A stretch of 42,288 bases of DNA from assembly GCA_021159265.1 (NCBI GenBank), contig JAGGSD010000108.1:1-42288 (forward strand), read 5' to 3'. The notes under the pieces are model-generated. The model was not told the origin of the DNA and did not search any database. It saw nothing but the letters and a program-made list of their open reading frames with translations. The position numbers and the translations under genes are program-made. Origin of the DNA: Syntrophobacterales bacterium. Lineage in GTDB: Bacteria; Desulfobacterota; Syntrophia; Syntrophales; UBA6807. This document shows positions 8,615-27,918 of this stretch, piece after piece. How positions within the stretch are numbered: position 1 is the stretch's first letter; every line of letters begins with the position of its first letter.

Positions 8615-10303
8615 ATGGAGGAGGAAGTGACTGGTAAAAATAACGCAAGCGAAGTCAACTGGGATGACTATCTCAAGGCATATTATGAGAAACCATCCAG
8701 TTTCAAGAGCTGGTCGGGGTATGATGTAAAGGAAATTTATACTCCGGAAGACAGTCCTGATGAGAAGTATGAAGAAAAAATTGCAGATGCCGGCGAATAC
8801 CCTTTCACCCGGGGAATTCACGCAAACATGTTCCGTGGCCGGTTATGGACTAAAAGGGAGGTTGTAGGCATAGGTTCGCCTGCGGACACACATGAGCGTC
8901 TGCAATATCTGGTTGAGCAGGGGGGCTCCGGGTTGAACACCATCGCTGATGTTACTTATGAGATGGGGCTTGATGCGGATCATCCCTGGGCAGTCAATGA
9001 AGTCGGCTTAACAGGTGTAAATATTACCTCCATTAAGGACATGGAGACGCTGACCAAAGACATACCCCTGGACAAAGTCAGCTGGTCTCTGATTACTGCT
9101 TCCACGGCCGCATCAGTAACCATGGCTCAATACATAGCTGTTGCGGAAGACGCAGGTTATCAACCGGCGGCATTGCGTGGTTCTGTGCAGAATGATCCAA
9201 TACACTTTCGTTACTGCGGTTTCAGGCCTGCATCTCCTTTGGATTTATCCATCAAGCTGGGTTCCGACGTCATGGAATACTGCACAAGGAACCTGCCCAA
9301 GTGGTATTACACGACTGTGAATATGTATGATCTGAGGGAACAGGGGATAACAGCGCCTCAGGAAGTGGCGTTCGGTTTTGGCATCGCCATGTGTTACATA
9401 GATGAACTGATTCGACGTGGATTGAATATTGATGAATTTGCCCCGCGGTTTACCTTTTATGTTTCCTGTCATATGGACATTTTTGAGGAAGTGGCCAAGA
9501 TCAGGGCTGCGCGAAGGATGTGGGCAAAATTGATGAAGGAGAAGTATGGGGCAAAAGACCCGCGTTCGATGCACTTCCGCTTCGCGGTTCATACGGCAGG
9601 GTGTTCGCTTATTCCACAACAGCCGTTGAATAATATTGTGCGGGTTGCGTATGAGGGTCTGACTGCCGTTTTGGCCGGTGTACAGTCTCTCCACTGCTGT
9701 TCATATGATGAGCCCATGTGTCTTCCTTCTGAAAAGGCACATCTCCAGGCCCTGCGAACGCAACAGATCCTTGCATACGAAACGGGGGTAACAAATGTGG
9801 CTGATCCCCTGGGAGGGTCGTACTATGTAGAGAGTCTCACCGACAAGATGGAAGAGGAAGTTTTGAAGGTTATGAAGCGGGTTGAAGATGTCGGGGGAAT
9901 GGAAGAGGCTATTCGCACAGAGTGGCTGGATCACGAACTTGAATCTGAAGCTGTCGAACGGCAAAAGGAACTGGACGATGGCTCGAAACTTGTGGTTGGA
10001 CTCAACATTTTCAAAGAGGAAGAGGAAAAGGAGACGCCTATGGGCGTCCAGCGAGTTTCGCCGCAGTCCGCAAAGCAGCAGATAGAAGAAGTCAAAGAGC
10101 TGAAGCGCACAAGGGATATGAGCAAAGTAAGAGATGCCATAAAGCGTATCAGGGACGAGGCGGGAGAAGGTAAAAATACTATTCCTCCAATGATGGAAGC
10201 TTCAAGAGCATTCGCGACAACCGGAGAAATGTTAGGCACCATTCGCCAGGTATTTGGATATTCATATGATCCTATGGAGATCATTGAATCACCATTCGAT
10301 TAA
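8615..10303 (+). CDS. B12-dependent acyl-CoA mutase large subunit, paralogue 1 (highly divergent active site)
   Basis: MCM-family strings GEYPFTRGI, FAPRFTF, AKIRAARRMWAK and DPLGGSYYVESLT. The substrate-pocket motifs are altered (see findings). The start could instead be GTG 8627, preceded by GGAGGAGG. Confidence 0.85.
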   Translation: MEEEVTGKNNASEVNWDDYLKAYYEKPSSFKSWSGYDVKEIYTPEDSPDEKYEEKIADAGEYPFTRGIHANMFRGRLWTKREVVGIGSPADTHERLQYLVEQGGSGLNTIADVTYEMGLDADHPWAVNEVGLTGVNITSIKDMETLTKDIPLDKVSWSLITASTAASVTMAQYIAVAEDAGYQPAALRGSVQNDPIHFRYCGFRPASPLDLSIKLGSDVMEYCTRNLPKWYYTTVNMYDLREQGITAPQEVAFGFGIAMCYIDELIRRGLNIDEFAPRFTFYVSCHMDIFEEVAKIRAARRMWAKLMKEKYGAKDPRSMHFRFAVHTAGCSLIPQQPLNNIVRVAYEGLTAVLAGVQSLHCCSYDEPMCLPSEKAHLQALRTQQILAYETGVTNVADPLGGSYYVESLTDKMEEEVLKVMKRVEDVGGMEEAIRTEWLDHELESEAVERQKELDDGSKLVVGLNIFKEEEEKETPMGVQRVSPQSAKQQIEEVKELKRTRDMSKVRDAIKRIRDEAGEGKNTIPPMMEASRAFATTGEMLGTIRQVFGYSYDPMEIIESPFD

Positions 10304-11742: not shown

Positions 11743-13386
11743 ATGAATAATCCGGATTACATGGAAGCAAAAAAGTATGGGGAAGATATTTCTCTGGATG
11801 AGGAGCTTTATCGCAACCTCTCCGGGTTCCATATTAAATCCCTTTATGGTCCTGAAGATATTCCGAAGTTCGATTATGGAACCGACCTGGGTTTGCCGGG
11901 TGAATATCCATTCACACGTGGGATTTATAGAACCATGTACAGGGGAAAACCTTGGACTATCCGGCAATTGGGGTCTCTGGGTTCGCCTTCGGAGGCTAAC
12001 CGGCGAATCAGGCAGTTAATACAGATGGGTTCCACAGGAGTCAGCATCTGCCTGGATATGCCTACCATCATGGGAAGGGATTCTGATGATCCCATGTCTG
12101 AAGGGGAAGTGGGAAGCTGTGGCGGTGTGGCCATCGACTCTCTGGAAGATATGCGCAACCTCCTGGAGGGTCTTCCGCTTGATGAGATCAGCATCAATTT
12201 TGTCTCCAATTCTCAGTCTCCGGTCATTTTAGCCATGTTTGTCGCAGTTGCCGGGGAACAGGGTATTCCTCTCGCAAAACTCAACGGCACAATGCAGAAC
12301 GATATCCTCAAGGAATATCAGGCCCAGAAGTCTTATTATTTTCCACCACGTCCTTCCATGCGTCTTACCATCGATACGCTTCGTTTTTGTAGTGAGAATA
12401 TGCCGCTCTTTAACCCCATCAGCATTAGTGGGTATCATCTGGCCTCTGCGGGCGCAACTCCTGTTCAGGAATTGGCATTTACACTTGCCAATGGTTTTAC
12501 TTATATAGAGGAAGGGATTAAAGCGGGACTTTCTGTTGACAGCTTTGCCCCGCGGCTTTCTTTTTTCTTTAAGGCACATAATGATTTTTTTGAAAATATT
12601 GCCAAATTTCGTGCTGCCCGTCGAATCTGGTCCCGGACAATACGTGAGAAATATAAAGCCGAAGATCCGCGTTCGTGGCGATTCAGAGTTCATACACAGA
12701 CCTCAGGGTCTTCACTCGCGGCTCAGGAACCGGAAAATAATATTATGAGGGTGACTATCCAGGCGCTTTCGGCAGTCCTGGCGGGGACCCAGTCATTGCA
12801 TACCAATGCCTTTGACGAGGCATTTTCCATACCCACTCCGAGGTCTGAAAAACTGGCTTTGAGGGCTCAACAGATTATCGCCCGCGAGAGCGGGGTTATT
12901 AACACAGTGGATCCTCTTGGAGGTTCCTATTATATCGAGGCGCTGACTAACGAGATGGAGTCCGTGTCCTATGAGTATTTCAGAGAAATAGAAAATCTAG
13001 GTGGGGTCATTTCAGCCATAGAAAAGGGTTTCTATCAGAGCGCCATAGCCGATTCCGCCTTCAAATATCAGGAAGAGATTGAAAAGAAAAAGAGAATTGT
13101 GGTCGGTCTCAACGAGTTTGTTACAGATGAAGAGATGGATATCGAACTGAGAGAACCCGATCCGGAGTTTGAGAAACAGAAGGTGGCGGATCTCACAGCG
13201 CTTAAAAAAAATAGAGATTTAAATGTAGTCAAGACCTGCCTGAGTGAAGTCAGACAAGTCATTCAGGGATCGGATAATGTCATGCCGGTCCTGATAAAGG
13301 CTGTAAAATCCCGCGTTACTCTGGGTGAAATCATTAATGTCATGCGGGACATTTTCGGCGAATTCAGGGAAGAGTCCATATATTGA
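11743..13386 (+). CDS. B12-dependent acyl-CoA mutase large subunit, paralogue 2 (ICM/HCM/PCM-like, Gln at the Arg207 position)
   Basis: GEYPFTRGIYRTMYRGKPWTIRQ, GTMQNDILKEYQAQK, ISISGYH, FAPRLSFFF, SLHTNAFDEA and DPLGGSYYIEALT. Confidence 0.9.
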   Translation: MNNPDYMEAKKYGEDISLDEELYRNLSGFHIKSLYGPEDIPKFDYGTDLGLPGEYPFTRGIYRTMYRGKPWTIRQLGSLGSPSEANRRIRQLIQMGSTGVSICLDMPTIMGRDSDDPMSEGEVGSCGGVAIDSLEDMRNLLEGLPLDEISINFVSNSQSPVILAMFVAVAGEQGIPLAKLNGTMQNDILKEYQAQKSYYFPPRPSMRLTIDTLRFCSENMPLFNPISISGYHLASAGATPVQELAFTLANGFTYIEEGIKAGLSVDSFAPRLSFFFKAHNDFFENIAKFRAARRIWSRTIREKYKAEDPRSWRFRVHTQTSGSSLAAQEPENNIMRVTIQALSAVLAGTQSLHTNAFDEAFSIPTPRSEKLALRAQQIIARESGVINTVDPLGGSYYIEALTNEMESVSYEYFREIENLGGVISAIEKGFYQSAIADSAFKYQEEIEKKKRIVVGLNEFVTDEEMDIELREPDPEFEKQKVADLTALKKNRDLNVVKTCLSEVRQVIQGSDNVMPVLIKAVKSRVTLGEIINVMRDIFGEFREESIY

Positions 13387-13936: not shown

Positions 13937-15619
13937 ATGTCTAAACTGTTTAACGAAGATGTTGTTGAAGAAATAACGAGGAAGGGAGATCGGTGGCAAC
14001 AAAGTACCGGCCATGGCGGAAAAGCAAATGACAGGGAATTTCGGACCCTTTCGGGCATTTCTGTTGAACCTGTGTACACTCCCGAACATACGGCTGATAT
14101 GGATTATTTACGCGATCTGGGATTTCCCGGTGAGCCCCCTTTTGTACGTGGCGTCCATCCGACGATGTACAGGGAACGTGCCTGGACAATGAGACAACTT
14201 GCGGGTTACGGCCCGCCTGAAGAGACCAATAAAAGATATAAATTACTTTTAAGTGAGGGTGCCACAGGGATAAACGGTATTTTCGATTATCCCACCCTTC
14301 GGGGTTATGATTCCACCGATCCCCTGGCCCGTGCCGATTGTGGGCGCGGCGGGGTAGCGATCGATACTCTGGAAGATATGCGTATTCTTTTCGACGGCAT
14401 ACCGCTTGAGAAGGTCAGTAGTTCTCTCGTAACTTGTCAACCGATATGCAACATCACAGTTCAATCCATGTATTTTGCCAATGCCAGGAATCGGGGCGTC
14501 CCGTTAGATAAGCTTACAGGAACGAGTCAAAATGATTTTTTGATGGAGACATGCATGGCTACGGCCCCCGGTGTTTTACCACCAAAAGCATCTTTTAAGC
14601 TGAGTTGTGATGCCATTGAATATTGCACTAAACATGCGCCCCGCTGGAATCCGATCAGTTTTGCCGGCTATAACTACAGAGAGTCCGGATGTACAGCGGA
14701 CCAGGAGGTGGCTTTTGTTATTGCGAATGCTATTGCCTGTTCAGAGGAGATGGTCAGGCGGGGACTCGATGTTGACGATTTTGCACCCAGGCTCAGTTTT
14801 TTTATGAATGGTCAAAGCGATTTTTTTGAAGAAATTGCCAAGTATCGGGCTGCCAGAAGAGTTTGGTATCGGGTAATGAAGGAACGATTCAAAGCGAAGA
14901 ACCCCCGCTCCCTGGCTTTCAGGTTTCATGTACAAACGGCTGGTGTGGCTCTGACGGCTCAACAGCCTTTGAACAACATAGCTCGGTCGGCATATCATGC
15001 CCTTTCGGCGGCGCTGGGAGGCGCTCAATCCGTGCACATAGATGGTTATGATGAGGCGCTGTGTATACCGACTGAGCTTTCATCGATCACCGCTTTAAGA
15101 TGCAACCAGATTTTACAGCTTGAGACCAGGGTGACCAACACCGTAGATCCTCTGGGGGGATCTTATTTTGTGGAGGCGCTAACCAGCAAGCTGGAGGAAA
15201 AAATACTTATGCTCTTGGAGGAAATGGACGGGCTTGGCGGTATTGTTAAGGCAACAGAGACAGGCTGGATACATGGCAAGATTGCTGATGCGGCCTATGA
15301 ATATCAAAATGATATTGAAACGGGGAAAATGCCTGTCGTTGGAGTAAATTGTTACCGGATGGATGACGAGGTGCTTCCCATAGAGCTCTTCGAAGTGCCG
15401 GAAACAGCTAAAGTGCAGGAGAAGAGGCTCAAAAGGATTAAAAAAGAACGTAGTGATTCAGAGGTGCGGCGGGCGCTGGATGCAATTTCCCGTTGTTGTG
15501 ACGAGGATGGGAACCTTATGGAGGTGATAGTGGAATCTGTGCAATCTCTTGTAACGGAGGGAGAAATAACAGAGGTCCTGAAGGATAAATACGGTGTATG
15601 GAATCCGCCGCTATTTTGA
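13937..15619 (+). CDS. B12-dependent acyl-CoA mutase large subunit, paralogue 3 (non-canonical pocket)
   Basis: GEPPFVRGVHPTMYRERAWTMRQ, FAPRLSFFM, AKYRAARRVW and DPLGGSYFVEALT. GAGGAG lies 9 nt before the ATG. Confidence 0.9.
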   Translation: MSKLFNEDVVEEITRKGDRWQQSTGHGGKANDREFRTLSGISVEPVYTPEHTADMDYLRDLGFPGEPPFVRGVHPTMYRERAWTMRQLAGYGPPEETNKRYKLLLSEGATGINGIFDYPTLRGYDSTDPLARADCGRGGVAIDTLEDMRILFDGIPLEKVSSSLVTCQPICNITVQSMYFANARNRGVPLDKLTGTSQNDFLMETCMATAPGVLPPKASFKLSCDAIEYCTKHAPRWNPISFAGYNYRESGCTADQEVAFVIANAIACSEEMVRRGLDVDDFAPRLSFFMNGQSDFFEEIAKYRAARRVWYRVMKERFKAKNPRSLAFRFHVQTAGVALTAQQPLNNIARSAYHALSAALGGAQSVHIDGYDEALCIPTELSSITALRCNQILQLETRVTNTVDPLGGSYFVEALTSKLEEKILMLLEEMDGLGGIVKATETGWIHGKIADAAYEYQNDIETGKMPVVGVNCYRMDDEVLPIELFEVPETAKVQEKRLKRIKKERSDSEVRRALDAISRCCDEDGNLMEVIVESVQSLVTEGEITEVLKDKYGVWNPPLF

Positions 15620-15653
15620 TTCTTGAAAATTGTAATATGAGAGAGAGGAATAG

Positions 15654-16040
15654 ATGAAAAAAGCGATCAGGGTAGTGATAGCGCGTCTTGGCATGGATGC
15701 TCACTGGAGGGGAAGCGTTGTGGTAGCGCGCGCCATACGTGATGCGGGAATGGAAGTTATCTATCTGGGGAATCAGATGCCGGAAGCTATTGTTGAAACT
15801 GCCATACAGGAAGATGTTAATGTGATAGGTCTGAGCACACTGTCGGGAAACCATCTGGAATTAGCGCCGGAGGTGGTCAGATTGCTCAGAGAAAAGGGGA
15901 TAAGGGACATACTGGTGATTCTTGGAGGAACCATCCCACCTGATGATATCCCAAAGCTCAAAGCGGCAGGTATAGCGGAGGTCTTTGGTACGGGGTCATC
16001 TTTGGAAAAGATTGTCCGGTTTGTATCAGGATCAGATTGA
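15654..16040 (+). CDS. Cobalamin-binding small subunit (partner of mutase 3) with variant DAHWRG motif
   Basis: 128 aa with ARLGMDAHWRGSVVV (DxHxxG kept; Lys to Arg, Gly to Ala, Asp to Trp relative to the other three), GLSTLSGNH and LGGTIP. Confidence 0.85.
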   Translation: MKKAIRVVIARLGMDAHWRGSVVVARAIRDAGMEVIYLGNQMPEAIVETAIQEDVNVIGLSTLSGNHLELAPEVVRLLREKGIRDILVILGGTIPPDDIPKLKAAGIAEVFGTGSSLEKIVRFVSGSD

Positions 16041-16081
16041 ATAAATTTTACAAAGTAAACATTTTAGACGAGGAAGGAGGA

Positions 16082-17533
16082 ATGGATAAAGTGAAGGGAA
16101 TTACAGCTTACGGCATTTATTTGCCATATCACAGACTGAAACGCGAGACTATTTTTAAGGCTATGGGGTGGTTTAACCCTGGGGTTGGAGGCTTGGCTAA
16201 AGGTGAGAAAGCCGTAGCCAATTTTGATGAAGACAGTCTTACCATGGCTGTTGCCGCCGGTATGGATTGTTTCCCGGATATCGGCAGAGAAGAAATTGAT
16301 GCTCTGTATCTTGCCTCGACAACTTTTCCATACAAGGAAAGGGGAAATGCCTCAATTGCCGCCGGGGCATTGAATCTTTCTGCAAATACCCGAACCGCCG
16401 AGTTTTCCGGGTGTCTGAAATCGGGGACGACCGCGCTTATTTCGGCCCTCAACGCATCCGATTCAGAAACAACGATGGTCTGCGCATCCGACACTCGTCT
16501 TGGCAAGGCCGGCGGAACCGAGGAGCAGATGACGGGAGATGGAGCCGCTGCCGTTGCTGTGGGGAGTAAAGGAGTAATTGCTTCTCTTATTGACCATTAT
16601 TCTATCTCTTATGATTTTCCGGATCACAGGCGATTGGATTCAGATAAGTTTATCCGAAGCTGGGAAGAAAGATGGATGCGGGAAGCGGGTTATTTTAAAA
16701 TATTGCCGGAAGCTGTCAATGGTCTCCTTGCCAGGTGCGGGCTTCAAATCAGCGACATTACCAAAGTGGTTTATGCTCCCCCCAATCTCAGAGATCATAA
16801 AGCCATGGCTCAGAGTCTGGGCATAAAACCTGAGAGAGTTCAGTCTCCCCTAATCGAACCGGTGGGGAACACAGGGGCGGCGCATCCTCTGGTTATGCTG
16901 ATAGCGGCGCTGGAAGAAGCTCAGCCGGGCGATAAAATACTGGTGGCGAGTATGGGAAGCGGTAGCGACGCCTTGCTCTTTGAGGTTACGGAAGAGATAA
17001 CAAAACTGAAATCAAGGAACAAATTGAAGAAGAATCTGGATTACAAAGGTGAGCTTGACAATTATACAAAATACCTCTCATTCAAGGGTATGCTGGAAAA
17101 AGAGATAGGAATACGCGGTGAAGAAGTTTCACCCACCAGTCTATCCCTTCAATGGAGGGAACGGAACGCGGTTTTGAAACTGGTTGGCGCAAAATGCAAG
17201 GTTTGCGGGACCCCTCAGTTTCCCGCCGAAACTGTATGCATTAATCCCGAGTGCGGGGCGGTGGGTCAGATGGAGGAGTATTCCTTTTCAGACAAGACAG
17301 GTCACCTCTTTACCTTTACGGCCGATCACCTGGCTTTTACGGAAGACCCGCCGGGTCTGTATGGAATAGTAGATTTTGATGAGGGAGGCAGGTACTGGTT
17401 TGATATTACCGACTGTCGTCTGGAATCATTAAAGGTAGGTCAACCTGTGCAGATGACCTTTAGAAGAAGATATCTTGATGAGGCTCGTGGCATTGCCGGC
17501 TATTTCTGGAAAGCAATGCCCTTTAAGGGTTAA
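16082..17533 (+). CDS. HMG-CoA-synthase-like condensing-enzyme domain fused to a DUF35 Zn-ribbon/OB-fold domain
   Basis: N-terminal FDEDSLTMAV (Glu), EFSGCLKSGTTAL (Cys) and VGNTGAA (Asn). C-terminal CKVCG...CINPEC four-Cys ribbon plus OB-fold region. GGAAGGAGG precedes ATG 16082; the ORF-track TTG at 16037 is rejected. Confidence 0.8.
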   Translation: MDKVKGITAYGIYLPYHRLKRETIFKAMGWFNPGVGGLAKGEKAVANFDEDSLTMAVAAGMDCFPDIGREEIDALYLASTTFPYKERGNASIAAGALNLSANTRTAEFSGCLKSGTTALISALNASDSETTMVCASDTRLGKAGGTEEQMTGDGAAAVAVGSKGVIASLIDHYSISYDFPDHRRLDSDKFIRSWEERWMREAGYFKILPEAVNGLLARCGLQISDITKVVYAPPNLRDHKAMAQSLGIKPERVQSPLIEPVGNTGAAHPLVMLIAALEEAQPGDKILVASMGSGSDALLFEVTEEITKLKSRNKLKKNLDYKGELDNYTKYLSFKGMLEKEIGIRGEEVSPTSLSLQWRERNAVLKLVGAKCKVCGTPQFPAETVCINPECGAVGQMEEYSFSDKTGHLFTFTADHLAFTEDPPGLYGIVDFDEGGRYWFDITDCRLESLKVGQPVQMTFRRRYLDEARGIAGYFWKAMPFKG

Positions 17534-17548
17534 TGATATGTAACTATT

Positions 17549-17639
17549 CAGGTTCAAAGTTCAACGGTCCACGGTTCAAAAACGATGAACATAGCCGGGA
17601 TGAAGATAAGGCAACCGTGTGTGAACCTGACAACCTGAG
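17549..17639. repeat. Imperfect palindromic intergenic element (GGTTCAA / TGAACC repeats)
   Basis: CAGGTTCA (17549-17556) pairs with TGAACCTG (17622-17629). GGTTCAA-like units are repeated on the left arm and AACCTGA units on the right arm. Confidence 0.5.
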
Positions 17640-17682
17640 TAATTGAGATGATACTACGTAAATTTAAAAAGGAGTAATAGAA

Positions 17683-18885
17683 ATGGCAGAAGGTATAAAA
17701 AATAAAGTCGCTATTGTCGGCATGGGGTGCACCAGATTTGGAGAACATTGGGACAGAAGCGCCGAATCACTGGCCTCTGAGGCATTTGAAGAGGCCATTG
17801 CCGATGCGGGAATTGAAAAGAAAGATATTGATGCAGCCTGGTTTTCAAGTTGTTTCGATGAAGTCAATGTAGGAAAAAGCGCCATCCCTCTGGCGGGCGC
17901 TCTAAAATTGCCGTTTATTCCTATCACCAGGGTGGAGAATTTCTGCGCCAGCGGCACCGAGGCCATCCGGGCGGCCAGTTATGCCGTGGCTTCCGGGGCG
18001 TGTGACGTAGCACTGGCATTGGGAGTGGAAAAGTTGAAAGACATCGGTTACGGCGGTCTGCCGGATTTCAGCCAGCTTCGGGGCATATATAACCGGCAGA
18101 TATTCCCCAATGTTACGGCGCCGGGTCAGTTCGCCATGCTTGCAACCAGGTATTTTGACAGATACGGCCTCAGCCCGGAAGAGGGCAAAAGAACACTGGC
18201 AAAAATATCCTCAAAAAGTCACGCGAACGGAGCTCTGACCCCCAAGGCTCATTTACGGAGAAAAGTTGATGTTGAAACTATTATGAACGCTCCCATGATT
18301 GCCTGGCCTTTAGGTCTCTTTGATTGTTGCGGCGTTACGGAAGGGTCGGCGGCGGCCATTATTGTCAGAGCGGAAGACGCCAAGAAATTTCGCAAGGATC
18401 CAATTTATGCTAAAGCTCTTCAGATTGCTGTCAGCCCGGAAGAGGAATATAGATATCAGCAGTGGGACGGGACGCATGTAGAGACAACCTATCGTTGCGG
18501 GGTAAATGCCTATAAAGAGGCCGGCGTGAAAAATCCTCGTGAAGAGATAAGCATGATGGAGGTGCACGATTGTTTTTCCATAACTGAACTGGTGACATAC
18601 GAGGATTTGCAGATCTCGCCCAGGGGGAAGGCTAAAGAGGATATAGATGCGGGCTTTTATGACCTGGATGGGAAAATACCGTGTCAATCGGACGGGGGCC
18701 TGAAGAGTTTTGGCCATCCTATCGGCGCTTCCGGTATAAGAATGGCTTATGAGGTGTATAAACAGCTCCAGGGAAAATGCGGGGAACGGCAAATTAGAGA
18801 TCCTCACCTTGGACTTACCCATAATCTGGGAGGTTTCCCGGCAAACTGTGTAATAGGAGTTACTATTTGGGGGAATGAACTGTAA
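17683..18885 (+). CDS. SCP-x / archaeal-type thiolase (partner of the DUF35 protein)
   Basis: VAIVGMGCTRFGEHWD N-terminus, nucleophile VENFCASGTEAIR, HDCFS and GGLKSFGHPIGASG. These are typical of non-specific lipid-transfer-type thiolases. Confidence 0.88.
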   Translation: MAEGIKNKVAIVGMGCTRFGEHWDRSAESLASEAFEEAIADAGIEKKDIDAAWFSSCFDEVNVGKSAIPLAGALKLPFIPITRVENFCASGTEAIRAASYAVASGACDVALALGVEKLKDIGYGGLPDFSQLRGIYNRQIFPNVTAPGQFAMLATRYFDRYGLSPEEGKRTLAKISSKSHANGALTPKAHLRRKVDVETIMNAPMIAWPLGLFDCCGVTEGSAAAIIVRAEDAKKFRKDPIYAKALQIAVSPEEEYRYQQWDGTHVETTYRCGVNAYKEAGVKNPREEISMMEVHDCFSITELVTYEDLQISPRGKAKEDIDAGFYDLDGKIPCQSDGGLKSFGHPIGASGIRMAYEVYKQLQGKCGERQIRDPHLGLTHNLGGFPANCVIGVTIWGNEL

Positions 18886-18926
18886 CCTGCTAATATGTTT
18901 CAGAGAACAATAGAGGAGGTGTCGCA

Positions 18927-20264
18927 ATGGCAACAAGGAAATTAGCAGAGTTTGTTTACAAGACTTCGTTTGAAGATATACCTCAGGAGGTCAGGGAGCA
19001 CTCCAAACTTGTGTTTCTTGACTGGCTGGGCGCCGCGTTGGCTGGATCAGGAGAAGGAATAGCTTCCGTTATGCTGAGATTTATTGATGATATTGATGGC
19101 AAGAACGGGCCTGACCAGGCCACGATTATTGGCAAGAACGTCAAGACAGATATGCTCAAAGCGGCCCTCATCAATGGTTCAATGTCCCACGCCCTCGATA
19201 TCGACGATTACCATGGCCCGACTCTGTGTCATCCGACAGTAACCTTTTTACCCGGTATCCTGGCGCTGTCTCAGCAAAACCACTTGGAAGGAAAAGATAT
19301 CATCACTGCCATGACAGTGGCCTTTGATATATTAGTCAGGGTAGGATACGGGGCGAAGAGGATTCACTATGACCGGGGTTGGCATGCCACTTCAACCCTG
19401 GGAAAGTTCGGAGCCACGGCAGGCGCCGGCAAATTGTTAAAACTGGATGTTGATGGATTAATAAATGCTTTTGGAATTGCCGGAACGGTGGCGGGAGGAG
19501 TCCGCCAGGTATTCGGTACCATGGGCAAACCCTTCCATGCAGGGAAGGCTTCTATGGACGGGCTTCTGGCAGCGCTTCTGGCTCAGTCAGGTTTTCAATG
19601 TTCAAAGGAGATCATTGAAGGTGAAAACGGGTTTATGACGCTCTTTTCCGATGATCCGGATTTAGACACAATGCTTGATCAGTTGGGAGAGTATTATTAT
19701 TTGCCTACTGTGAGCTTTAAACCTTATGCCTCATGTGGCGGCACACACTCGACCATAGATATGATGAAGGAACTTCGAGAGAAAAATAATATCAATGTGG
19801 ATGATGTGAAAGAAATAAGAATAGACGCAGGCAAAATAGCGTTAGATGCAGCCGGCAAGGTTGCGCCAAAGACCGGCCTTGAGGGAAAATTCAGTACTTA
19901 TTATTGCGCGGCAGTGGCGTTGGCGGAGGGTGCAGCGAGCCCCGATAAATTTACCGATGAAAAAGTAAATGATCCCAGGCTGGTAGCGCTGAGGCAGAAA
20001 GTGAAAATAAGTGTTCCTGAACCGGACCTCGGTTTTGCTTTACGTGCAGTGATACAGATGAAGGATGGAACTGAATATTCGGCCTCCACCGATGCCCCCA
20101 GGGGGGACCCCGCAAATCCAATTTCTTATGATGAACTTGCGGAAAAATTCAGAGGTTTGACAAAAAACGTAATATCCGAGGCTAATGTTGAACAGTTGAT
20201 AGATAAAATAAAAACACTCGATCGAGTATCAGACATTGAAACGTTGCTGGATCTTTGTTCATAG
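18927..20264 (+). CDS. MmgE/PrpD-family protein (2-methylcitrate dehydratase superfamily)
   Basis: 445 aa. The N-terminus LAEFVYKTSFEDIPQEVREHSKLVFLDWLGAALAGS is typical of the family. GAGGAGG precedes the ATG. Confidence 0.85.
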   Translation: MATRKLAEFVYKTSFEDIPQEVREHSKLVFLDWLGAALAGSGEGIASVMLRFIDDIDGKNGPDQATIIGKNVKTDMLKAALINGSMSHALDIDDYHGPTLCHPTVTFLPGILALSQQNHLEGKDIITAMTVAFDILVRVGYGAKRIHYDRGWHATSTLGKFGATAGAGKLLKLDVDGLINAFGIAGTVAGGVRQVFGTMGKPFHAGKASMDGLLAALLAQSGFQCSKEIIEGENGFMTLFSDDPDLDTMLDQLGEYYYLPTVSFKPYASCGGTHSTIDMMKELREKNNINVDDVKEIRIDAGKIALDAAGKVAPKTGLEGKFSTYYCAAVALAEGAASPDKFTDEKVNDPRLVALRQKVKISVPEPDLGFALRAVIQMKDGTEYSASTDAPRGDPANPISYDELAEKFRGLTKNVISEANVEQLIDKIKTLDRVSDIETLLDLCS

Positions 20265-20301: not shown

Positions 20302-21966
20302 ATGACTAAAGAGACCGAAATTGCAAAAGAAAAGAAAAGATGGGAGGCGGAAACACTTTCCGGCCAGTCGTATAAAAAAAATGTGAAGGCCATGCTTACG
20401 GGTGTCGATCTCGATGTCGACGTTCTTTATACGCCTGCAGACATTAAAGATACGGACTATTTAGAAGATATTGGTTTCCCCGGCGAATTTCCCTTTACAC
20501 GAGGTGTCTACCCCTCAATGTACCGTGGAAGGCTGTGGACGATGAGACAGTATTCGGGATTTGATACTCCGGAAGAATCCAATGCAAGGTATAAGTACCT
20601 GTTGGCGCAGGGGAATACAGGACTCAGTGTGGCCTTTGATCTTCCGAGCCAGATGGGATACGACTCCGACAATGAAGACATTGAGGAAGAAGTGGGAAAG
20701 GTAGGCGTGGCCATCAGCACATTAAAAGATATGGAAATCCTTTTCGACGGCATCAATCTGGGTGAAATTACGACTTCGTTTACCATTAATGGAATCGCCT
20801 CCATTATTCTTGCCATGTATGTTGCCGTTGCGGATGAACGGGGCATTCCTCGAGAGAAGATAGGCGGGACCATTCAAAACGATATACTGAAGGAGTATGC
20901 CGCGAGGGGCACTTACCTGTATCCCCCAAAGCCGTCGCTGCGGCTGGTTGCGGACGCCATTGAATATTGTATGAATGATGTTCCGAAATTCAATCCTATC
21001 AGTATATCGGGCGGACATTATCGAAGTGGGGGCGCGAGTATGGTTCAGGAAGCTTCGTTTACCATGCTGAACGGGATGACCTATATTGAGTCTATAATTG
21101 CCAGGGGTATTGACGTGGATAAATTTGCGCCCCGGTTGAGTTACCTTCTGGTGAATCACTGTAACATTTTCGAGGAAGTTGCCAGATATCGCGCTGTCAG
21201 GAGGATCTGGGCGCATGTTATGAGAGACAGGTTCAATGCGAAAGACCCGAGATCCATGATGTTCCGGGTTTACTCCGCCGGATGCGGGGATGTCTTAACA
21301 TACGCGGAACCGGAAAATAATATTGTCCGGTTAACCCTGATGACCCTGGCCGGTATCCTGGGAGGGAGCCAGGCCTATTTTACACCCGGCTATGATGAAG
21401 CCTATGCCCTGCCGACTGAGGAGACAGCGCTGTTAGGTCTTCGCACACAGCAGATCATTGCCTATGAATCGGGAGTGCCCAATACCGTGGATCCTCTTGG
21501 AGGTTCCTATTATATAGAGTGGCTTACCGACAAAATCGAAGATGAGATCCTGAAGTATATGAAACATCTGGAAGAGAGAGGGAATATGGTCGAGCTCGTT
21601 GAGCAGGGTTATATCCAGAGTGAAATGGCCAGGATTGCATTTGAGAAGACCAAGAAAAAGATGTCCGGCGAGGAAGTGGTGGTGGGAGTCAATAAATTTC
21701 AGGCCTCGGAGAAGAAAGAACAGATTCAGCTTCACCAGACAGATCCAGAGGTAATTAAAAAACGTATAGAGAGTGTGAAGCAGGTGAAAAAAGAGCGTGA
21801 TAACGACAAGGTTGCTCATTGTTTGAAGGATCTGAAAAAAGCGGCAGAGGGGACTGAGAACATGATGCCTTATATACTGGAAACAGTGAAGGCCTATGGA
21901 TCGGTGGAGGAGATTGTTACGACCCTGAAGGAAGTATTCGGAGAATTTAAAGAGCCGCTGATATAG
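20302..21966 (+). CDS. B12-dependent acyl-CoA mutase large subunit, paralogue 4 (keeps the MCM Tyr/Arg carboxylate clamp)
   Basis: GEFPFTRGVYPSMYRGRLWTMRQYSGF, GLSVAFDLPS, GTIQNDILKEYAARGTYLYPP, FAPRLSY and DPLGGSYYIEWLT. Confidence 0.9.
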   Translation: MTKETEIAKEKKRWEAETLSGQSYKKNVKAMLTGVDLDVDVLYTPADIKDTDYLEDIGFPGEFPFTRGVYPSMYRGRLWTMRQYSGFDTPEESNARYKYLLAQGNTGLSVAFDLPSQMGYDSDNEDIEEEVGKVGVAISTLKDMEILFDGINLGEITTSFTINGIASIILAMYVAVADERGIPREKIGGTIQNDILKEYAARGTYLYPPKPSLRLVADAIEYCMNDVPKFNPISISGGHYRSGGASMVQEASFTMLNGMTYIESIIARGIDVDKFAPRLSYLLVNHCNIFEEVARYRAVRRIWAHVMRDRFNAKDPRSMMFRVYSAGCGDVLTYAEPENNIVRLTLMTLAGILGGSQAYFTPGYDEAYALPTEETALLGLRTQQIIAYESGVPNTVDPLGGSYYIEWLTDKIEDEILKYMKHLEERGNMVELVEQGYIQSEMARIAFEKTKKKMSGEEVVVGVNKFQASEKKEQIQLHQTDPEVIKKRIESVKQVKKERDNDKVAHCLKDLKKAAEGTENMMPYILETVKAYGSVEEIVTTLKEVFGEFKEPLI

Positions 21967-22008
21967 ATTAACCGCAGGATGTACCTGGCGTGGGGGGGGA
22001 TAATTATC

Positions 22009-22515
22009 ATGAAAAACTTATCTGTTCTGGTTTCCGGAATTGATAAAGTGGGCGAATTTTTTCTCAGGGCATGTGCCTTTTTATTGTTATTGATGCTTGT
22101 AACTGTTCTTTATGATGTTTTGATGAGATATTTCTTTTCGAGGCCGACTTCCTGGGCGCTGGAGATAAATGAATATTTCTTTATCTTTCTTTCAATAATG
22201 CCGGCAGCCGAAATATTACGTCAGAAGAAACATATAGGTCTGGATATATTTTTAAAAAAATTGTCCGGAAGACGTCAGCTCTACGTTGAGATATTTTATT
22301 CGATTTGTATGCTCTTCTTTTCTTCAATCGTGGTCTGGCGGGGATTTGAAATGACTGCTAATGCCTACAAATTTGGTATGGCCTCCAGTTCTCTGCTGTC
22401 GTTTCCCCTCTTTATCCCATATTCTCTAATCCCCGCTGGTTTTGGGTGGTTAAGCTTGCAGTTGGTTGTTAAGATCGGCAGTAATATTAATATGTTAGCG
22501 GGGAGGTACGAATGA
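22009..22515 (+). CDS. TRAP transporter small permease (DctQ-type)
   Basis: About 168 aa, four hydrophobic segments, with a 4-bp ATGA overlap with the following DctM gene. The start could also be 21979. Confidence 0.8.
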   Translation: MKNLSVLVSGIDKVGEFFLRACAFLLLLMLVTVLYDVLMRYFFSRPTSWALEINEYFFIFLSIMPAAEILRQKKHIGLDIFLKKLSGRRQLYVEIFYSICMLFFSSIVVWRGFEMTANAYKFGMASSSLLSFPLFIPYSLIPAGFGWLSLQLVVKIGSNINMLAGRYE

Positions 22516-23816
22516 GCGTAACATTTGCCGCCATTTTAGTATTCATCATATTATTGCTGCTTATTTTTATGGGTTGCCCGGTTTTTGCTTCTCTCGGCAT
22601 TTCCGCAACCATCGGTATTCTACTGCTGCGAGGATGGGTGGGGGTGAGTCAGATTCCCTCCACGATGTATGGACAGTTATCAAGCTTTGTCCTGATAGCC
22701 GTTCCAATGTACCTGTTAATGGGCGATGTTCTTTTTAAGACAGGTATCGGTGCTGATCTTTATGATGTGTTCAGTAAATGGTTTAACCGTATTCCCGGTG
22801 GATTGGCAATGGCCAGTGTCTTTGCATGCGCAGTGTTTGGGGCCATGTGCGGCATCAGTATTGCCGGTGTCGCAACGATTGGAGTAATAGCAATTCCCGA
22901 AATGTTAAAAAGGGGGTATAGCCCGCCTCTTGCAGCCGGGTCTGTGACGGCAGCCGGGGCTCTGGCCATGCTGATTCCGCCAAGCCTGCTTTTTATTCTG
23001 TACGGCGCTATAGCCGAAGTGTCTCTTGATAAACTTTTTGTGGGCGGTATTGTTCCCGGTCTGATTCTGGCATTAATGATGTGTATTTATATCGCGATTC
23101 GCGTATTGATTAATCCCCAATCAGCGCCCATGCCGGATGAAGTTATTACATGGAGCGACAGGATTCGACCGTTAAAGAGACTCTGGCCTGCGATTCTGCT
23201 TATTGTATGGGTCCTGGGTTCCATATATGGTGGAATTGCCACTCCTACAGAAGCCGGAGCTTTCGGCGCCGCAGGGGCCTATCTCATTGCCATATTTGTT
23301 TATCGTACTTTCAGCCTGAAGATGCTTGCCGAAACGTTGTTGACCACTGCCCGTACTACCGGTGCAGTGTGCCTTATTGTAGCTTGCGCCATGGTATTTT
23401 CCCAATTCATGAATCTGGCCAGGGTTCCTGAAAACCTGGCGCAATTTCTGGTTTCACTGTCTATGCCTGATTGGGTGCTTATGTTTATTGTTATGGTGTT
23501 TCTTCTTATTCTGGGCATGCTCATTGACGGCGCATCAATGGTTCTGGTTACCACTCCCATCCTGCTGCCGGTTGTGGTAGCCGCCGGGTATGACCCCCTG
23601 TGGTATGGAATAATACTGGTTCTGAATTTGGAAATGGCGGTCATAACGCCTCCGGTGGGTTTAAATCTATATACCTTAAAGAGTGTTACGGATGCGGTGT
23701 CAATGGCCGAAATACTCCGCGGGACGATGCCTTATGTCGCCGTGGAATTTGCCTGTTTGATGTTTTTTGTGTTTTTCCCGGAATTGGCGCTATGGCTGCC
23801 GTCAACTATGAAATAA
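22512..23816 (+). CDS. TRAP transporter large permease (DctM-type)
   Basis: 434-aa polytopic membrane protein. Paralogous along its length to 28641-29933 (for example PTEAGAFGAAGA vs PTEAGAVGMILS; ITPPVGLNLYTLK vs ETPPVGLNLYVLK). Confidence 0.9.
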   Translation: MSVTFAAILVFIILLLLIFMGCPVFASLGISATIGILLLRGWVGVSQIPSTMYGQLSSFVLIAVPMYLLMGDVLFKTGIGADLYDVFSKWFNRIPGGLAMASVFACAVFGAMCGISIAGVATIGVIAIPEMLKRGYSPPLAAGSVTAAGALAMLIPPSLLFILYGAIAEVSLDKLFVGGIVPGLILALMMCIYIAIRVLINPQSAPMPDEVITWSDRIRPLKRLWPAILLIVWVLGSIYGGIATPTEAGAFGAAGAYLIAIFVYRTFSLKMLAETLLTTARTTGAVCLIVACAMVFSQFMNLARVPENLAQFLVSLSMPDWVLMFIVMVFLLILGMLIDGASMVLVTTPILLPVVVAAGYDPLWYGIILVLNLEMAVITPPVGLNLYTLKSVTDAVSMAEILRGTMPYVAVEFACLMFFVFFPELALWLPSTMK

Positions 23817-23954
23817 GCGACGGGAAAAAGAGGGCGTTATGAGTGTGGCGGATCACGATCGTTCGGGCCATTCTCGTAGCAGTTAATAGTAAACTTCATA
23901 ACTTAACATTCCGGTGATTTGTTGTAACGCCGGATTATAAAAAAGGGGGTTATC

Positions 23955-25004
23955 ATGTTAAGGGTAATTTTTACAAGGAGTAAACTGGCGGCGGTGAAAG
24001 TCTTTGTGATGTTTTCCATTGTGATGTTTTTACTTACGACGGGCTTTGTGGCGGTTTCCAGTGCCGGAGAGAGCAACAAAGAGTTAAAACTGGTTATGGC
24101 GACATATCTCCTGCCGGCATATAAGGGGATATTCCCTGCGCTTCCAAGATTTGTTGATTATGTGAATGAGCATGGAAAGGGGATAGTGCAGATTGATTTC
24201 TATCATTCAGGGACTCTTCTAAAAGCGAAGGAATTGTTATCAGGCGTCCAGTCAGGCACAGCGGATATTATTTTTCAGACAGATGCCTATATAAGTGGGA
24301 CTTATCCGATGTTGGGCGCCATCCAGCTTCCTCTGCTTTATAACAGTGAAGAGGAGAGATATCAGAAAAATAAGCTTGGCACTCCGGTTTCCCATTTTTT
24401 GCGTGAAAAGATGAAAGAGAAAGGGATGGCTTTGCTGGCTATCGGTCAAGTTCCTACGGAATATATCTGGACAGTCAAAAAACCGGTGAGAAAACCATCG
24501 GACCTGAAGGGATTGCGTATGAGAGTTTCAGGGAAGATCGACTCTAAAACCGTGGCTACATTTGGCGCTTCTCCCGTCAGAATGCCTTCAGCCGAGGCGT
24601 TCATGGCTCTCAAACGGGGGGTTGTTGATGGCATAATGGCTTATTCCGGCACTATAGCAGGTCGGAGATTAGATGAAGTTCTAAAATATTGTACAATTGG
24701 CGCTTTTGGCAATATGCACGTGCTTATATTGACCCCTCAGGAGCGCTGGGAAAGCTGGCCGGAAAACGCGCGCAAGATCATTATGGAGGCGGCGAAACGA
24801 TATGAAGCCGATATGTATAAGACATGCACGAAATATATCGAAACTTTGTTCGAGACAAGGTTCAAAAATATAAAAGTAATCAGGCTTGATGACAGAGAAA
24901 GGTCCGCTTTTAAAAAAGACCTTACCCAAACCTACAGCTGGTGGGCGAATATGGTGGGAAAAAGTGAAGGCGAAAGGGCGCTGAAGATTGTCCGGGGCAA
25001 ATGA
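23955..25004 (+). CDS. TRAP solute-binding protein (DctP-type), copy 1
   Basis: Signal-peptide-like N-terminus. DctP-family strings HGKGIVQIDFYHSGTLL and LKGLRMRVSG (carboxylate-binding Arg region). GGGGG precedes the ATG. Confidence 0.88.
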   Translation: MLRVIFTRSKLAAVKVFVMFSIVMFLLTTGFVAVSSAGESNKELKLVMATYLLPAYKGIFPALPRFVDYVNEHGKGIVQIDFYHSGTLLKAKELLSGVQSGTADIIFQTDAYISGTYPMLGAIQLPLLYNSEEERYQKNKLGTPVSHFLREKMKEKGMALLAIGQVPTEYIWTVKKPVRKPSDLKGLRMRVSGKIDSKTVATFGASPVRMPSAEAFMALKRGVVDGIMAYSGTIAGRRLDEVLKYCTIGAFGNMHVLILTPQERWESWPENARKIIMEAAKRYEADMYKTCTKYIETLFETRFKNIKVIRLDDRERSAFKKDLTQTYSWWANMVGKSEGERALKIVRGK

Positions 25005-25112
25005 TTTCATCCCATGGGAGGGGTATTTCAGCGACAAAAGTAACAATTTTTCCTGAACGGTATACCCGCTGCTTGCGGCGGGGTATCGCATTGAAATTAC
25101 GGAGGTATAAAA

Positions 25113-26141
25113 ATGAGAGATTCAAAGTTGAAGAGATTTTGTCTGCTGTTTTTAGTCGGAGCAATCTGTTTTATCCTGGTGGGACAGACTGGCATTTCTT
25201 ATGCGGGAACCCACAAAGAACTGAAACTGGTTATGTCAACGTATATCCCCGCGAGCTACAAGGATATTCACCCATGGCAGCAAGGGTTTGTTGACTATGT
25301 GAATAAACATGGCAAGGGTATAGTGCAGATAGATTTTTATCACTCAAGCACTTTGCTGAAATTGAGAGAAGCGATCCCGGGACTGCAGGCAGGCACGGCG
25401 GATATCATTCTTCATCAAGACTCCGCCATTCAGGGAACCTATCCTATATTTGGCGTTACCGAGCTTCCATTCATATATGATAATTATGATGATTATGTAA
25501 TGGATTGCAGAATCGGGTCACCCCTGTTTAATTTGATCAATAAAGAACTCAAAAAAAAGAACATGTTTATGATTGCTGCCGCCGCGAATCCGTTTGAGCA
25601 TATCTGGACATTGAAACCCGTCAGGAAACCGGAAGACATGAAAGGTTTGAAACTAAGGTGTTCCGGCAGAATTGAGTCACTGACGTTAAAGGCTCTTGGA
25701 ACAGCGCCTGTCAGTATGCCGTCGGCCGAGGTTTTTATGGCAATGAAAAGAGGAACGGTGGATGGTCTGATGTCTTACCCTGGAACCGTGGGAGGGCGCA
25801 GGCTTGATGATGTTGTTAAATATTGCACCCTGGGTAATTTTGGCGCGTATATGACCCCGATATTTACGACTCGTGATCGGTGGGATAGCTGGCCTCAGGA
25901 TGTAAAAGATGTCATGATCGAAGCGGGAAGGGAATATAATTTCAGAAATGCATTGAATGGCAGAATTTATCTTCTGGAGACTTATTTCCCGAGATTTAAC
26001 CGAAAAATAGAAATGATAAAGCTCACGAAGGAAGAGATTGCAGCATTTAAAAAAGCGACAAAACCTGTCTATGACACCTGGTTAAAACAGGTTGACAAGA
26101 AAGTCGGGGAAAAGGCGCTGGCTATTGTTCAAAATAGATAG
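25113..26141 (+). CDS. TRAP solute-binding protein (DctP-type), copy 2 (tandem paralogue of copy 1)
   Basis: Shares long strings with copy 1 (KELKLVM, HGKGIVQIDFYHS, GTADII, MPSAE, VDG, VKYCT). GGAGG precedes the ATG. Confidence 0.88.
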   Translation: MRDSKLKRFCLLFLVGAICFILVGQTGISYAGTHKELKLVMSTYIPASYKDIHPWQQGFVDYVNKHGKGIVQIDFYHSSTLLKLREAIPGLQAGTADIILHQDSAIQGTYPIFGVTELPFIYDNYDDYVMDCRIGSPLFNLINKELKKKNMFMIAAAANPFEHIWTLKPVRKPEDMKGLKLRCSGRIESLTLKALGTAPVSMPSAEVFMAMKRGTVDGLMSYPGTVGGRRLDDVVKYCTLGNFGAYMTPIFTTRDRWDSWPQDVKDVMIEAGREYNFRNALNGRIYLLETYFPRFNRKIEMIKLTKEEIAAFKKATKPVYDTWLKQVDKKVGEKALAIVQNR

Positions 26142-26232
26142 AAAATAAATAGGTAACATAAAATTTTGCGGAGCTTAACTTTTGGGCTATGGATGAAGAA
26201 TGAGGATTGAATTATTTTAAGGGAGTTACAGT

Positions 26233-26637
26233 ATGGTTAAACATAGCATAAGGATATTGTTGGCCAAACCCGGACTTGACGGTCATGATCGGGGCGCTAA
26301 ATTTCTGGCAAGGGCATTACGAGATGCGGGGATGGAAGTGATTTACACGGGGCTGCATCAGAAAATACCCCAGATTGTAGTGTCGGCGTTGCAGGAAGAT
26401 GTTGATGTGGTTGGGCTGAGCATCCTGTCCGGGAGTCATCTGGGTCTCACAAAGAAATTTTTTGCTGAGAGTGAAAAAAGGGGTCTGGACGGAGAACTGG
26501 TGCTGGTTGGGGGCACCATCCCTGAGGAGGATTTCTCGAAGCTGAGAGAAATGGGCGTAGATGGGGTGTTTGGCGTTGAATCGGATATTGATGATATAGT
26601 TAACTTTATCCGGGAGCATGTTCCATCAGAAAAGTAA
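26233..26637 (+). CDS. Cobalamin-binding small subunit (orphan position; presumed partner of mutase 4)
   Basis: [24 protein letters not shown] and VGGTIP. It is the only unpaired B12-binding gene, and mutase 4 is the only unpaired large subunit. Confidence 0.85.
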   Translation: MVKHSIRILLAKPGLDGHDRGAKFLARALRDAGMEVIYTGLHQKIPQIVVSALQEDVDVVGLSILSGSHLGLTKKFFAESEKRGLDGELVLVGGTIPEEDFSKLREMGVDGVFGVESDIDDIVNFIREHVPSEK

Positions 26638-26879
26638 TTGTGACTACTCAGGTAAATAAACAGGCTGAAGGAAAAACCTTTAGACTTCGGTCTTCATTGC
26701 TCATTACCCAGTCCTTGTGGCTTCGCTTCGCCTGCCCTGGGAAGTATCCGGCGAGAGTTGGAGGGGGCTATAGTGAGGAAAATACTATTGTAAAGGAGGT
26801 GAAAATAAGGAGGTGAATGAAGAGTTGAAATGTTAAATTATCAGCAATATTAACGTTAACCTGATTATGGAGGTGTGTA

Positions 26880-27908: not shown

Positions 27909-27918
27909 GAGAAGGTTT

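Follow-up and report, generated by a model that had tools for sequence, protein, structure and literature searches.

A pseudo-HMG-CoA synthase/DUF35 fusion protein and an intact SCP2-type thiolase as a probable beta-oxidation unit of an anaerobic bacterium

We analyzed a 42,288-nucleotide contig (JAGGSD010000108.1, assembly GCA_021159265.1) of a Syntrophobacterales bacterium, referred to below as the window, in which two adjacent + strand genes encode a fusion protein and a thiolase. The fusion protein (16082-17533) joins a domain resembling hydroxymethylglutaryl-coenzyme A (HMG-CoA) synthase (HMGS) to a DUF35 domain, and the thiolase (17683-18885) is of the SCP2 type. In the most probable reading, the fusion protein is a noncatalytic pseudo-HMGS/DUF35 scaffold, and the thiolase that it binds carries out the terminal beta-ketothiolase step of a catabolic beta-oxidation module. 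The fusion protein has lost HMGS catalytic residues, the thiolase is intact, the gene pairing is conserved, and the pair lies in a beta-oxidation neighborhood. From these observations, we infer that the two proteins would form a complex working in the thiolytic direction on the type of substrate proposed below, in which the fusion protein would serve as scaffold or as part of the CoA site.

Architecture and fold of the fusion protein

An earlier note on this DNA, made from the letters alone, had described a 483-residue protein joining an HMGS-like domain to a four-Cys zinc-ribbon/OB-fold DUF35 domain. This fusion is real: the open reading frame (ORF) from ATG 16082 translates into 483 amino acids (aa), and Pfam recognized a FabH/HMGS-type C-terminal domain (residues 216-295) and both parts of DUF35. 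The HMGS-like thiolase-fold domain covers about residues 1-340 (16082-17101), as delimited by AlphaFold2, Foldseek, and alignments to chain 6esq_I of the Protein Data Bank (PDB). Further on are a four-Cys rubredoxin-like zinc ribbon (17177-17260; Pfam zf-ChsH2, residues 366-393) and an OB-fold (17294-17521, about residues 405-480; Pfam OB_ChsH2_C, residues 405-461), the predicted contact surface for the thiolase. The ribbon residues C372, C375, C386, and C391 are kept in 119 to 120 of 121 family members, a set made up of the fusion protein and its 120 best database relatives, which are 54-100% identical to it and often annotated "HMG-CoA synthase." A GGAGG sequence at 16076-16080 lies 1 nucleotide (nt) before ATG 16082 and 10 nt before GTG 16091, and the database protein identical to the fusion product has 480 aa; because of this Shine-Dalgarno spacing and the identical protein, the true start is probably GTG 16091, which gives 480 aa.

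Residues 5-340 matched as solved relatives PhlA (5m3k_A, 1.1e-34, the best), a second PhlA entry (9skh), 6esq_I (4.3e-33), and MucA (9vbo_A), and a profile search with the HMGS-like domain returned 9skh_A and 5m3k_A at about 1e-55. Chain 6esq_I is the HMG-CoA synthase (HMGCS) of the archaeal thiolase/HMGCS/DUF35 complex. Residues 357-481 matched 6esq_E (1.1e-16), the DUF35 chain of that complex. We modeled the protein with AlphaFold2 from 27 family members (pLDDT 84.8, pTM 0.89), and the model contained the HMGS/FabH-type thiolase fold and a disordered linker at residues 342-359. PhlA, archaeal HMGCS, and MucA held the top ranks when Foldseek was run on this model (6esq_I, E value of 2.8e-28 and target TM of 0.89; PhlA 5mg5_A, TM of 0.84).

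Three of four HMGS catalytic residues are missing in the alignments

The archaeal HMGS tetrad consists of E82, C114, H238, and N270, and an inactive quadruple mutant carries E82C/C114G/H238Q/N270D (Liao et al., PMC12960953). We located the tetrad by counting along 6esq_I (E82 in gsEshpy, C114 in efaCkagt, H238 in cvfHqpn, and N270 in lgNtys). PhlA has C, G, Q, and D in the four columns, which is exactly the published mutant, showing that the column assignment is sound. In both single-sequence and profile alignments to 6esq_I, the window fusion protein has T80, L112, A232, and N263 at these positions; judged by these alignments, three of the four HMGS catalytic residues are missing (Glu, Cys, and His).

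The loss extends to the whole set of 121 sequences. The E82 column holds T in 112, S in 4, V in 2, A and I in 1 each, and a gap in 1; the C114 column holds L in 70, T in 19, I in 13, V in 12, P in 5, and A and S in 1 each; and the H238 column holds P in 93, A in 11, S and T in 7 each, V in 2, and D in 1. No member has a catalytic Glu, Cys, or His in the matching columns (0/121), which argues that none is able to run the HMGS mechanism.

These columns bear on the residues that the earlier note had assigned by eye. Its proposal that the catalytic His is replaced by Ala was correct, as H238 aligns with A232 and no His stands in the catalytic column. The Glu and Cys of its triad were misplaced. 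The Glu of FDEDS (E50) belongs to a DED motif common to HMGCS, PhlA, and MucA, and it is T80 that aligns with E82 (GSESHPY); C111 lies one residue before the C114 column, and Cys is found there in just 38 of the 121 sequences. The Asn of VGNTGAA was rightly placed, since N263 falls in the N270 column, but this column holds Asn in only 65/121.

The neighboring gene encodes an intact thiolase

Pfam and NCBIfam confirmed that the next gene, as the earlier note had it, encodes an SCP2-type thiolase of 400 aa (PRK06157, 619.6 bits against a cut-off of 403). The 149-nt gap ahead of it contains a ribosome-binding site only. The catalytic set is intact, with Cys88, H295-D-C297-F, and G-H345-P, all invariant in 26 of 26 rows of an alignment that combined the window thiolase with 25 fusion-gene neighbors of other genomes, picked from 67 near-full-length matches (one thiolase row with an in-frame stop was removed). 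Its nearest solved relative is the archaeal thiolase ACAT (6esq_A, 5.1e-54, 187 bits), followed by other SCP2-type thiolases; BbsB (7pxp_C) scored 155 bits (2.7e-44), and PhlC (72 bits) and MucB (65 bits) were far weaker.

The thiolase-like subunits of Friedel-Crafts acylases lack the HDxF motif (PMC12960953), and in steroid aldolases Gly stands where the nucleophile Cys would be and the HDCF motif reads YDHF or YDCY (PMC12329534). Unlike both, the window protein has kept C88 and HDCF, showing that it is a true thiolase rather than an acylase or an aldolase. The earlier note had left the pair as either a C-C lyase or a thiolase. The second half of this suggestion stands, with the thiolase as the active enzyme, as in the fused complex of Pseudomonas fluorescens (PfACAT/HMGS-DUF35), which is reported to cleave acetoacetyl-CoA and to make neither HMG-CoA nor acetoacetyl-CoA (Liao et al., Nat Commun 2026, PMC12960953). 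There, the H294Y substitution in HDxF abolishes acetoacetyl-CoA cleavage. Lyase (aldolase) activity does not agree with the retained Cys88 and HDCF.

The gene pair is conserved among beta-oxidation genes of other genomes

The fused architecture is widespread: 2627 proteins matched at E <= 0.001 among the 8000 candidates scored, and a one-genome-per-species scan gave at least 598 pattern matches and at least 580 confirmed relatives. We analyzed gene context in the best 80 loci of these at least 580 relatives, all from other genomes, which belong to Desulfobacteraceae, Syntrophaceae, Bacillota, Dehalococcoidia/Chloroflexota, Desulfacinum isolates, "Candidatus Methanoliparum," and others. In 72 of the 73 loci with at least 700 nt of downstream DNA, a thiolase gene at least 50% identical to that of the window starts on the same strand within 500 nt of the fusion gene (the exception is L061), with a median gap of 28.5 nt.

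Within 6 kb of the 80 fusion genes, we found ligase (25), acyl-CoA dehydrogenase (ACAD; 25), short-chain dehydrogenase/reductase (SDR; 21), enoyl-CoA hydratase (ECH; 15), MaoC_N (13), MaoC_C (11), mutase small subunit (8), mutase large subunit (7), and MeaB (3) genes. These numbers come from tblastn searches with the window proteins as queries; they are undercounts, as many contigs are short, and the loci are not phylogenetically independent. The closest relatives among the best 80 (L007 and L044, 77-78% identity) have the order fusion, thiolase, SDR, MaoC, MaoC; in the window, PrpD, mutase-4, TRAP transporter, and ligase genes are interposed between the thiolase and the same SDR-MaoC block. 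MaoC genes adjoin the thiolase in five further loci (L012-L014, L023, and L048).

In two same-order relatives, the scaffold ORF runs on into SDR and SCP2 domains (L102:1978-4695 in G016:C31, 905 aa, and L103:1809-4556 in G011:C186, 915 aa), and in L102 thiolase and ACAD genes come directly after the fusion. The SDR-SCP2 fusion is 48% identical to the window fusion protein over 478 residues. The combination of SDR and SCP2 is the domain logic of the eukaryotic MFE-2/SCPx beta-oxidation of 2-methyl-branched acyl-CoAs. Together with the recruitment of SDR and MaoC enzymes by an archaeal ketothiolase/DUF35 pair (bioRxiv 10.1101/2024.07.05.601840), these fusions indicate that the scaffold is tied physically to the step preceding thiolysis. 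No C-terminal extension of more than 20 codons was found among the 81 near-full-length copies in the loci examined. Two other genomes (G020:C39 and G017:C60) have open frames, of 923 and 933 aa, that may be fusions of the same SDR-SCP2 type. A long upstream open frame in L054 was considered as a larger fusion and rejected as a chance open frame, as it has no Pfam domain ahead of the DUF35 part.

Four fusion-thiolase pairs in one genome

The genome containing the window (2.13 Mb in 423 contigs) encodes four fusion-thiolase pairs, all of which lie, by Pfam annotation, among ECH, 3-hydroxyacyl-CoA dehydrogenase (HCDH) or SDR, and ACAD genes. On contig C16, the order is DctQ, DctM, mutase large subunit, mutase small subunit, SDR, ECH, a BbsAB-like thiolase, a stand-alone DUF35 gene, fusion, thiolase, and ACAD. 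On C37, ECH, HCDH, ACAD, mutase, and MeaB genes precede the fusion and thiolase genes, and the pair's thiolase is the only one found on this 10.6-kb contig. On C73, ECH is followed by fusion and thiolase, with HCDH and carboxyltransferase genes further on. The BbsAB-like unit of C16 (L099:6158-7972; an SCP2-type thiolase of 391 aa and a DUF35 protein of 136 aa) lies directly upstream of the fusion-thiolase pair, showing that both kinds of DUF35-thiolase unit coexist in one cluster.

The link to mutases that the earlier note had drawn recurs in this genome, where it applies to three of the four pairs. It is not general, since a mutase small subunit gene lies within 6 kb in only 8 of the 80 other loci, and the general neighbors are ordinary beta-oxidation genes.

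The genome encodes 13 large subunits of the methylmalonyl-CoA mutase (MCM) family, four of them in the window and the rest on C111, C259, C16, C41, C9, C285, C79, C8, and C37. We read the columns aligned with Tyr89 and Arg207 of Propionibacterium shermanii MCM (1REQ) and Asp117 of 2-hydroxyisobutyryl-CoA mutase (4R3U), which we assume to be substrate-specificity positions. Eight subunits are Y/A/R (MCM-like), one is F/A/Q (like isobutyryl-CoA mutase, ICM), and one is F/A/R; window mutases 1, 2, and 3 read V/I/G, L/C/Q, and L/I/T and match none of the mutase types considered. A literature search returned nothing on pivalyl-CoA mutase. For the C37 mutase, we considered an ICM identity, with the C37 pair then serving as the acetoacetyl-CoA thiolase of butyrate/isobutyrate breakdown, and rejected it because the columns of this mutase are Y/A/R, as in MCM.

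Predicted interaction of the fusion protein with the thiolase

Co-folding of the fusion protein with the thiolase gave an ipSAE of 0.82, and the best of three controls gave 0.00. Of 157 solved complexes, 116 reach the mark applied to ipSAE, as do 2 of 215 mismatched pairs; these counts are only rough for this comparison, as our own alignments were used. The runs shared at least 88% of contacts, with a partner pLDDT of at least 90, and placed the interface on thiolase residues 122-263 and, in the fusion protein, on the linker and DUF35 (residues 344-475). Because similar complexes have been solved (6ESQ, 5M3K, 9VBO, and 7PXP), this score may reflect memory of the likeness.

Proposed role of the pair and alternatives

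We propose that the fusion protein would bind the neighboring SCP2-type thiolase, mainly through its DUF35 part, as a scaffold, and it may add part of a shared CoA-binding chamber, as its counterparts do in the solved structures of the archaeal, Phl, and Muc complexes. The thiolase would catalyze through Cys88, HDCF, and GHP, cleaving a 3-oxoacyl-CoA with CoA as the last step of the module. This module would run from carboxylate uptake through a CoA ligase, an ACAD, a MaoC or ECH hydratase, and an SDR or HCDH dehydrogenase to the thiolase, and in this organism it would be coupled to B12-dependent acyl-CoA mutases and act after these have rearranged the carbon skeleton. The substrate would be a short 3-oxoacyl-CoA, for which a methyl branch is plausible because the thiolase is of the SCP2 type, its partners are MaoC and SDR enzymes, and mutases are at hand.

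Several points weigh against this proposal, among them the stated limits of the neighbor counts. In the solved dodecamers, the HMGS-like subunit and the thiolase share a CoA chamber (PMC12960953); our 1:1 co-fold has no contact between the HMGS-like domain and the thiolase, so a shared chamber is not supported by the model. Furthermore, the HMGS-like domain is highly conserved for a mere scaffold, with 54-78% identity across phyla (mean column identity, 69%). It has a near-invariant, family-specific H239 (116/121), which the aligned HMGCS, PhlA, and MucA sequences lack, and a WEERW motif (RxWE[ED]R[WF][IMV]R[ED]) conserved enough for use as a family search pattern. To judge by such conservation, the domain may also bind a ligand or have some other role.

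The same conserved features speak for an HMGS-like domain with a new binding or catalytic role, for example holding or gating an acyl-CoA from the mutase or dehydrogenase steps, as does the reported lack of activity of MucB in the absence of its partners (PMC12960953). We nevertheless consider such a role unlikely, given that the old active-site columns hold neither a nucleophile nor a general base and that interface constraints of a dodecameric assembly could account for the conservation.

The pair could instead catalyze condensation and so start a reverse-beta-oxidation or fatty-acid-synthesis assembly modeled on the ketothiolase (KT)/DUF35 pair of Sulfolobus acidocaldarius. Thiolase, DUF35, SDR, and MaoC genes are all nearby, the archaeal KT/DUF35 pair is reported to bind an SDR and a MaoC enzyme (bioRxiv 10.1101/2024.07.05.601840), and the SDR is fused to the scaffold in relatives. 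However, the ACADs, the CoA ligase, and both TRAP uptake systems of the operon belong to the oxidative direction, ACAD is among the commonest neighbors (25/80 loci), and the P. fluorescens homologue is described as a thiolytic enzyme without condensation (PMC12960953), which makes this direction quite improbable.

It would be very surprising if the pair were a Friedel-Crafts C-acyltransferase that, like PhlACB or MucABC, acylates a small non-CoA acceptor with a CoA ester: PhlA is the best sequence and profile match of the HMGS-like domain, and PhlA and MucA are also dead HMGS subunits (PMC12960953), but the thiolase subunits of these acyltransferases lack the HDxF motif (PMC12960953) that is invariant here as HDCF, PhlC and MucB score far below archaeal ACAT, no polyketide synthase (PKS) or nonribosomal peptide synthetase (NRPS) domain occurs in the 34 window proteins scanned, and the neighbors are CoA-ester catabolic genes. 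A genuine archaeal-type thiolase/HMG-CoA synthase/DUF35 channeling complex that turns acetyl-CoA into HMG-CoA is just as hard to credit: the fold and the sequence matches include archaeal HMGCS and DUF35 chains, the best PDB match of the thiolase is the ACAT of that complex, and HMGL-like (HMG-CoA lyase-like) and ECH genes lie downstream in the window, but E82, C114, and H238 are replaced and no relative has them, mutating the tetrad inactivates the archaeal enzyme and no HMG-CoA is reported from the fused homologue of P. fluorescens (PMC12960953), scores fall under the NCBIfam cut-offs for HMGCS (NF003274 and TIGR00748; 212.7 versus 244 bits and 153.3 versus 353.35 bits), and a search for HMG-CoA reductase (PF00368) gave no match in this 95%-complete genome, the control search being positive in 5 of 14 known genomes. 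The view of the earlier note that the protein is not an HMG-CoA synthase thus agrees with our results and with the P. fluorescens complex.

A scaffold-bound terminal beta-ketothiolase could also be framed more broadly. One tentative and rather doubtful extension concerns anaerobes of hydrocarbon-rich sediments, in which pseudo-HMGS/DUF35-thiolase complexes would be reserved for the terminal thiolysis in catabolic modules for branched-chain acyl-CoAs that are coupled to B12 mutases, with the dead HMGS-like domain as an obligatory half-site. In that case, this domain would bind CoA or gate the substrate and would also be the docking site of the dehydrogenase that acts just before, a link seen in the SDR-SCP2 fusions. 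The complex would then hold the beta-oxidation enzymes together as a metabolon and would be no mere relic of evolution, and each of the four paralogous complexes would handle its own class of substrates, set by a mutase.

The catabolic operon of the window

The + strand of the window forms one long catabolic operon with four MCM-family large subunits (8615-10303, 11743-13386, 13937-15619, and 20302-21966), B12-binding small subunits, and a MeaB GTPase. It also encodes two tripartite ATP-independent periplasmic (TRAP) transporters, an AMP-forming acyl-CoA ligase (30080-31642; Pfam and NCBIfam), an SDR (31749-32489; Pfam), a split MaoC hydratase (subunit pair at 32533-33433; Pfam), a carboxyltransferase, an ECH, and an HMGL-like lyase. 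The ligase, the SDR, and the MaoC pair, all on the + strand, are the probable activating enzyme, 3-hydroxyacyl-CoA dehydrogenase, and enoyl-CoA hydratase of the beta-oxidation module, respectively. Upstream in the window are FadE/FadB/FadA-type genes and a divergent TetR gene.

The earlier note had placed the fusion-thiolase pair between mutase 3 and mutase 4. The pair does follow mutase 3 (13937-16040), but a PrpD-like gene separates it from mutase 4. The product of that gene, an MmgE/PrpD-family protein encoded directly after the thiolase (18927-20264), scored 61.9 bits against a 2-methylcitrate dehydratase cut-off of 950. TRAP systems (DctQ/DctM and three DctP binding proteins) interrupt the operon at 21979-29933 and split the mutase-4 large subunit gene (20302-21966) from that of its presumed B12-binding small subunit (26233-26637). 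At 33858-37756, the carboxyltransferase, ECH, and HMGL-like lyase genes stand in a row, which resembles the steps from methylcrotonyl-CoA to HMG-CoA lyase in leucine/isovalerate breakdown; no biotin-carboxylase gene was found in the window, and the HMGL-like lyase scored 125.8 bits, well under the HMG-CoA lyase cut-off of 246. Rfam at the gathering threshold gave no match in the window, showing no riboswitch by the mutase or thiolase genes. DNA near-identical to 15600-19000 occurs in hydrothermal-vent and marine-sediment metagenome runs of several studies, and no RNA run was listed among those with DNA matching this interval.

Comparison with known systems

The architecture and the loss of HMGS activity are already in print (PMC12960953). 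What we add is a corrected residue map, evidence that Glu, Cys, and His are lost throughout the family, the beta-oxidation synteny, the SDR-SCP2 fusion, and the repeated coupling to mutase operons in one genome. In our literature search, no paper tied the pseudo-HMGS/DUF35 family to anaerobic beta-oxidation or mutase clusters, although the supplements of PMC12960953 may bear on this point; a study of the acetone proteomics of Desulfococcus biacutus proved irrelevant to it. Strict pairing with an intact thiolase, beta-oxidation neighbors across phyla, the SDR-SCP2 fusion, and four copies in a small genome with 13 acyl-CoA mutase paralogues indicate a physiological role, and the pseudo-HMGS/DUF35-thiolase family is likely a common catabolic beta-ketothiolase of anaerobes. 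The widespread annotation of this family as "hydroxymethylglutaryl-CoA synthase" is wrong and can mislead the reconstruction of pathways, for example toward a mevalonate pathway that does not exist, and the comparative data point to gene sets for finding the real substrates.

All three modules of the archaeal ACAT/HMGCS/DUF35 complex (6esq) recur in the window pair with the same folds, and the HDCF of archaeal ACAT is also kept in the window thiolase. In contrast to the archaeal complex, E82, C114, and H238 are missing from the window HMGS module, which shares one protein with DUF35, and the genome, having no HMG-CoA reductase match, has no mevalonate pathway. PhlACB (5M3K/5MG5) and MucABC (9VBO/9VBT) share with the window a dead HMGS-like subunit and the three-module architecture. 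They differ, according to the published descriptions, in having lost HDxF, in acylating small non-CoA acceptors, in their separate DUF35 protein, and in their location in secondary-metabolite clusters.

BbsAB, the benzoylsuccinyl-CoA thiolase (7PXP), resembles the window pair in combining a DUF35 zinc-finger partner with an SCP2-type HDxF thiolase in anaerobic catabolic beta-oxidation. However, BbsA is described as a stand-alone DUF35 protein without an HMGS-like domain, whereas the window DUF35 is fused. As to a bbs-type context, the window proteins yielded no family-III CoA-transferase. In the ketothiolase/DUF35 complex of S. acidocaldarius, DUF35 mediates assembly of the thiolase with an SDR and a MaoC enzyme (bioRxiv 10.1101/2024.07.05.601840), and the same enzyme types neighbor the window pair; that complex serves fatty-acid synthesis and, as reported, has no HMGS-like module, whereas the window context is catabolic. 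The steroid side-chain aldolases Ltp2-ChsH2 and Sal-Shy also rely on DUF35 to hold a protein of thiolase fold, and this DUF35 shares its chain with a second domain that is partly inert, but the nucleophile is replaced by Gly, the HDCF motif by YDHF or YDCY, and the fusion partner of DUF35 is a MaoC hydratase (PMC12329534).

The closest described counterpart in architecture, and the one biochemical precedent, is the P. fluorescens complex, a likeness based on the arrangement of domains and the published description. In PfACAT/HMGS-DUF35 as in the window pair, an HMGS-like domain is fused N-terminally to DUF35, the HMGS tetrad is lost, and the adjacent SCP2-type thiolase has Cys, HDxF, and GHx motifs, with no PKS or NRPS neighbors described. 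The survey in PMC12960953 mined 1,030 bacterial HMGS/ACAT/DUF35 loci, 1,001 of them without secondary-metabolism genes, and its authors regard the P. fluorescens complex as an evolutionary intermediate without a pathway. The window protein differs in keeping Asn in the N270 column, which is variable in the family. Furthermore, in contrast to the P. fluorescens complex, to which its authors assign no pathway, the window pair lies within beta-oxidation and B12-mutase operons of an anaerobe, whose genome has four such pairs.

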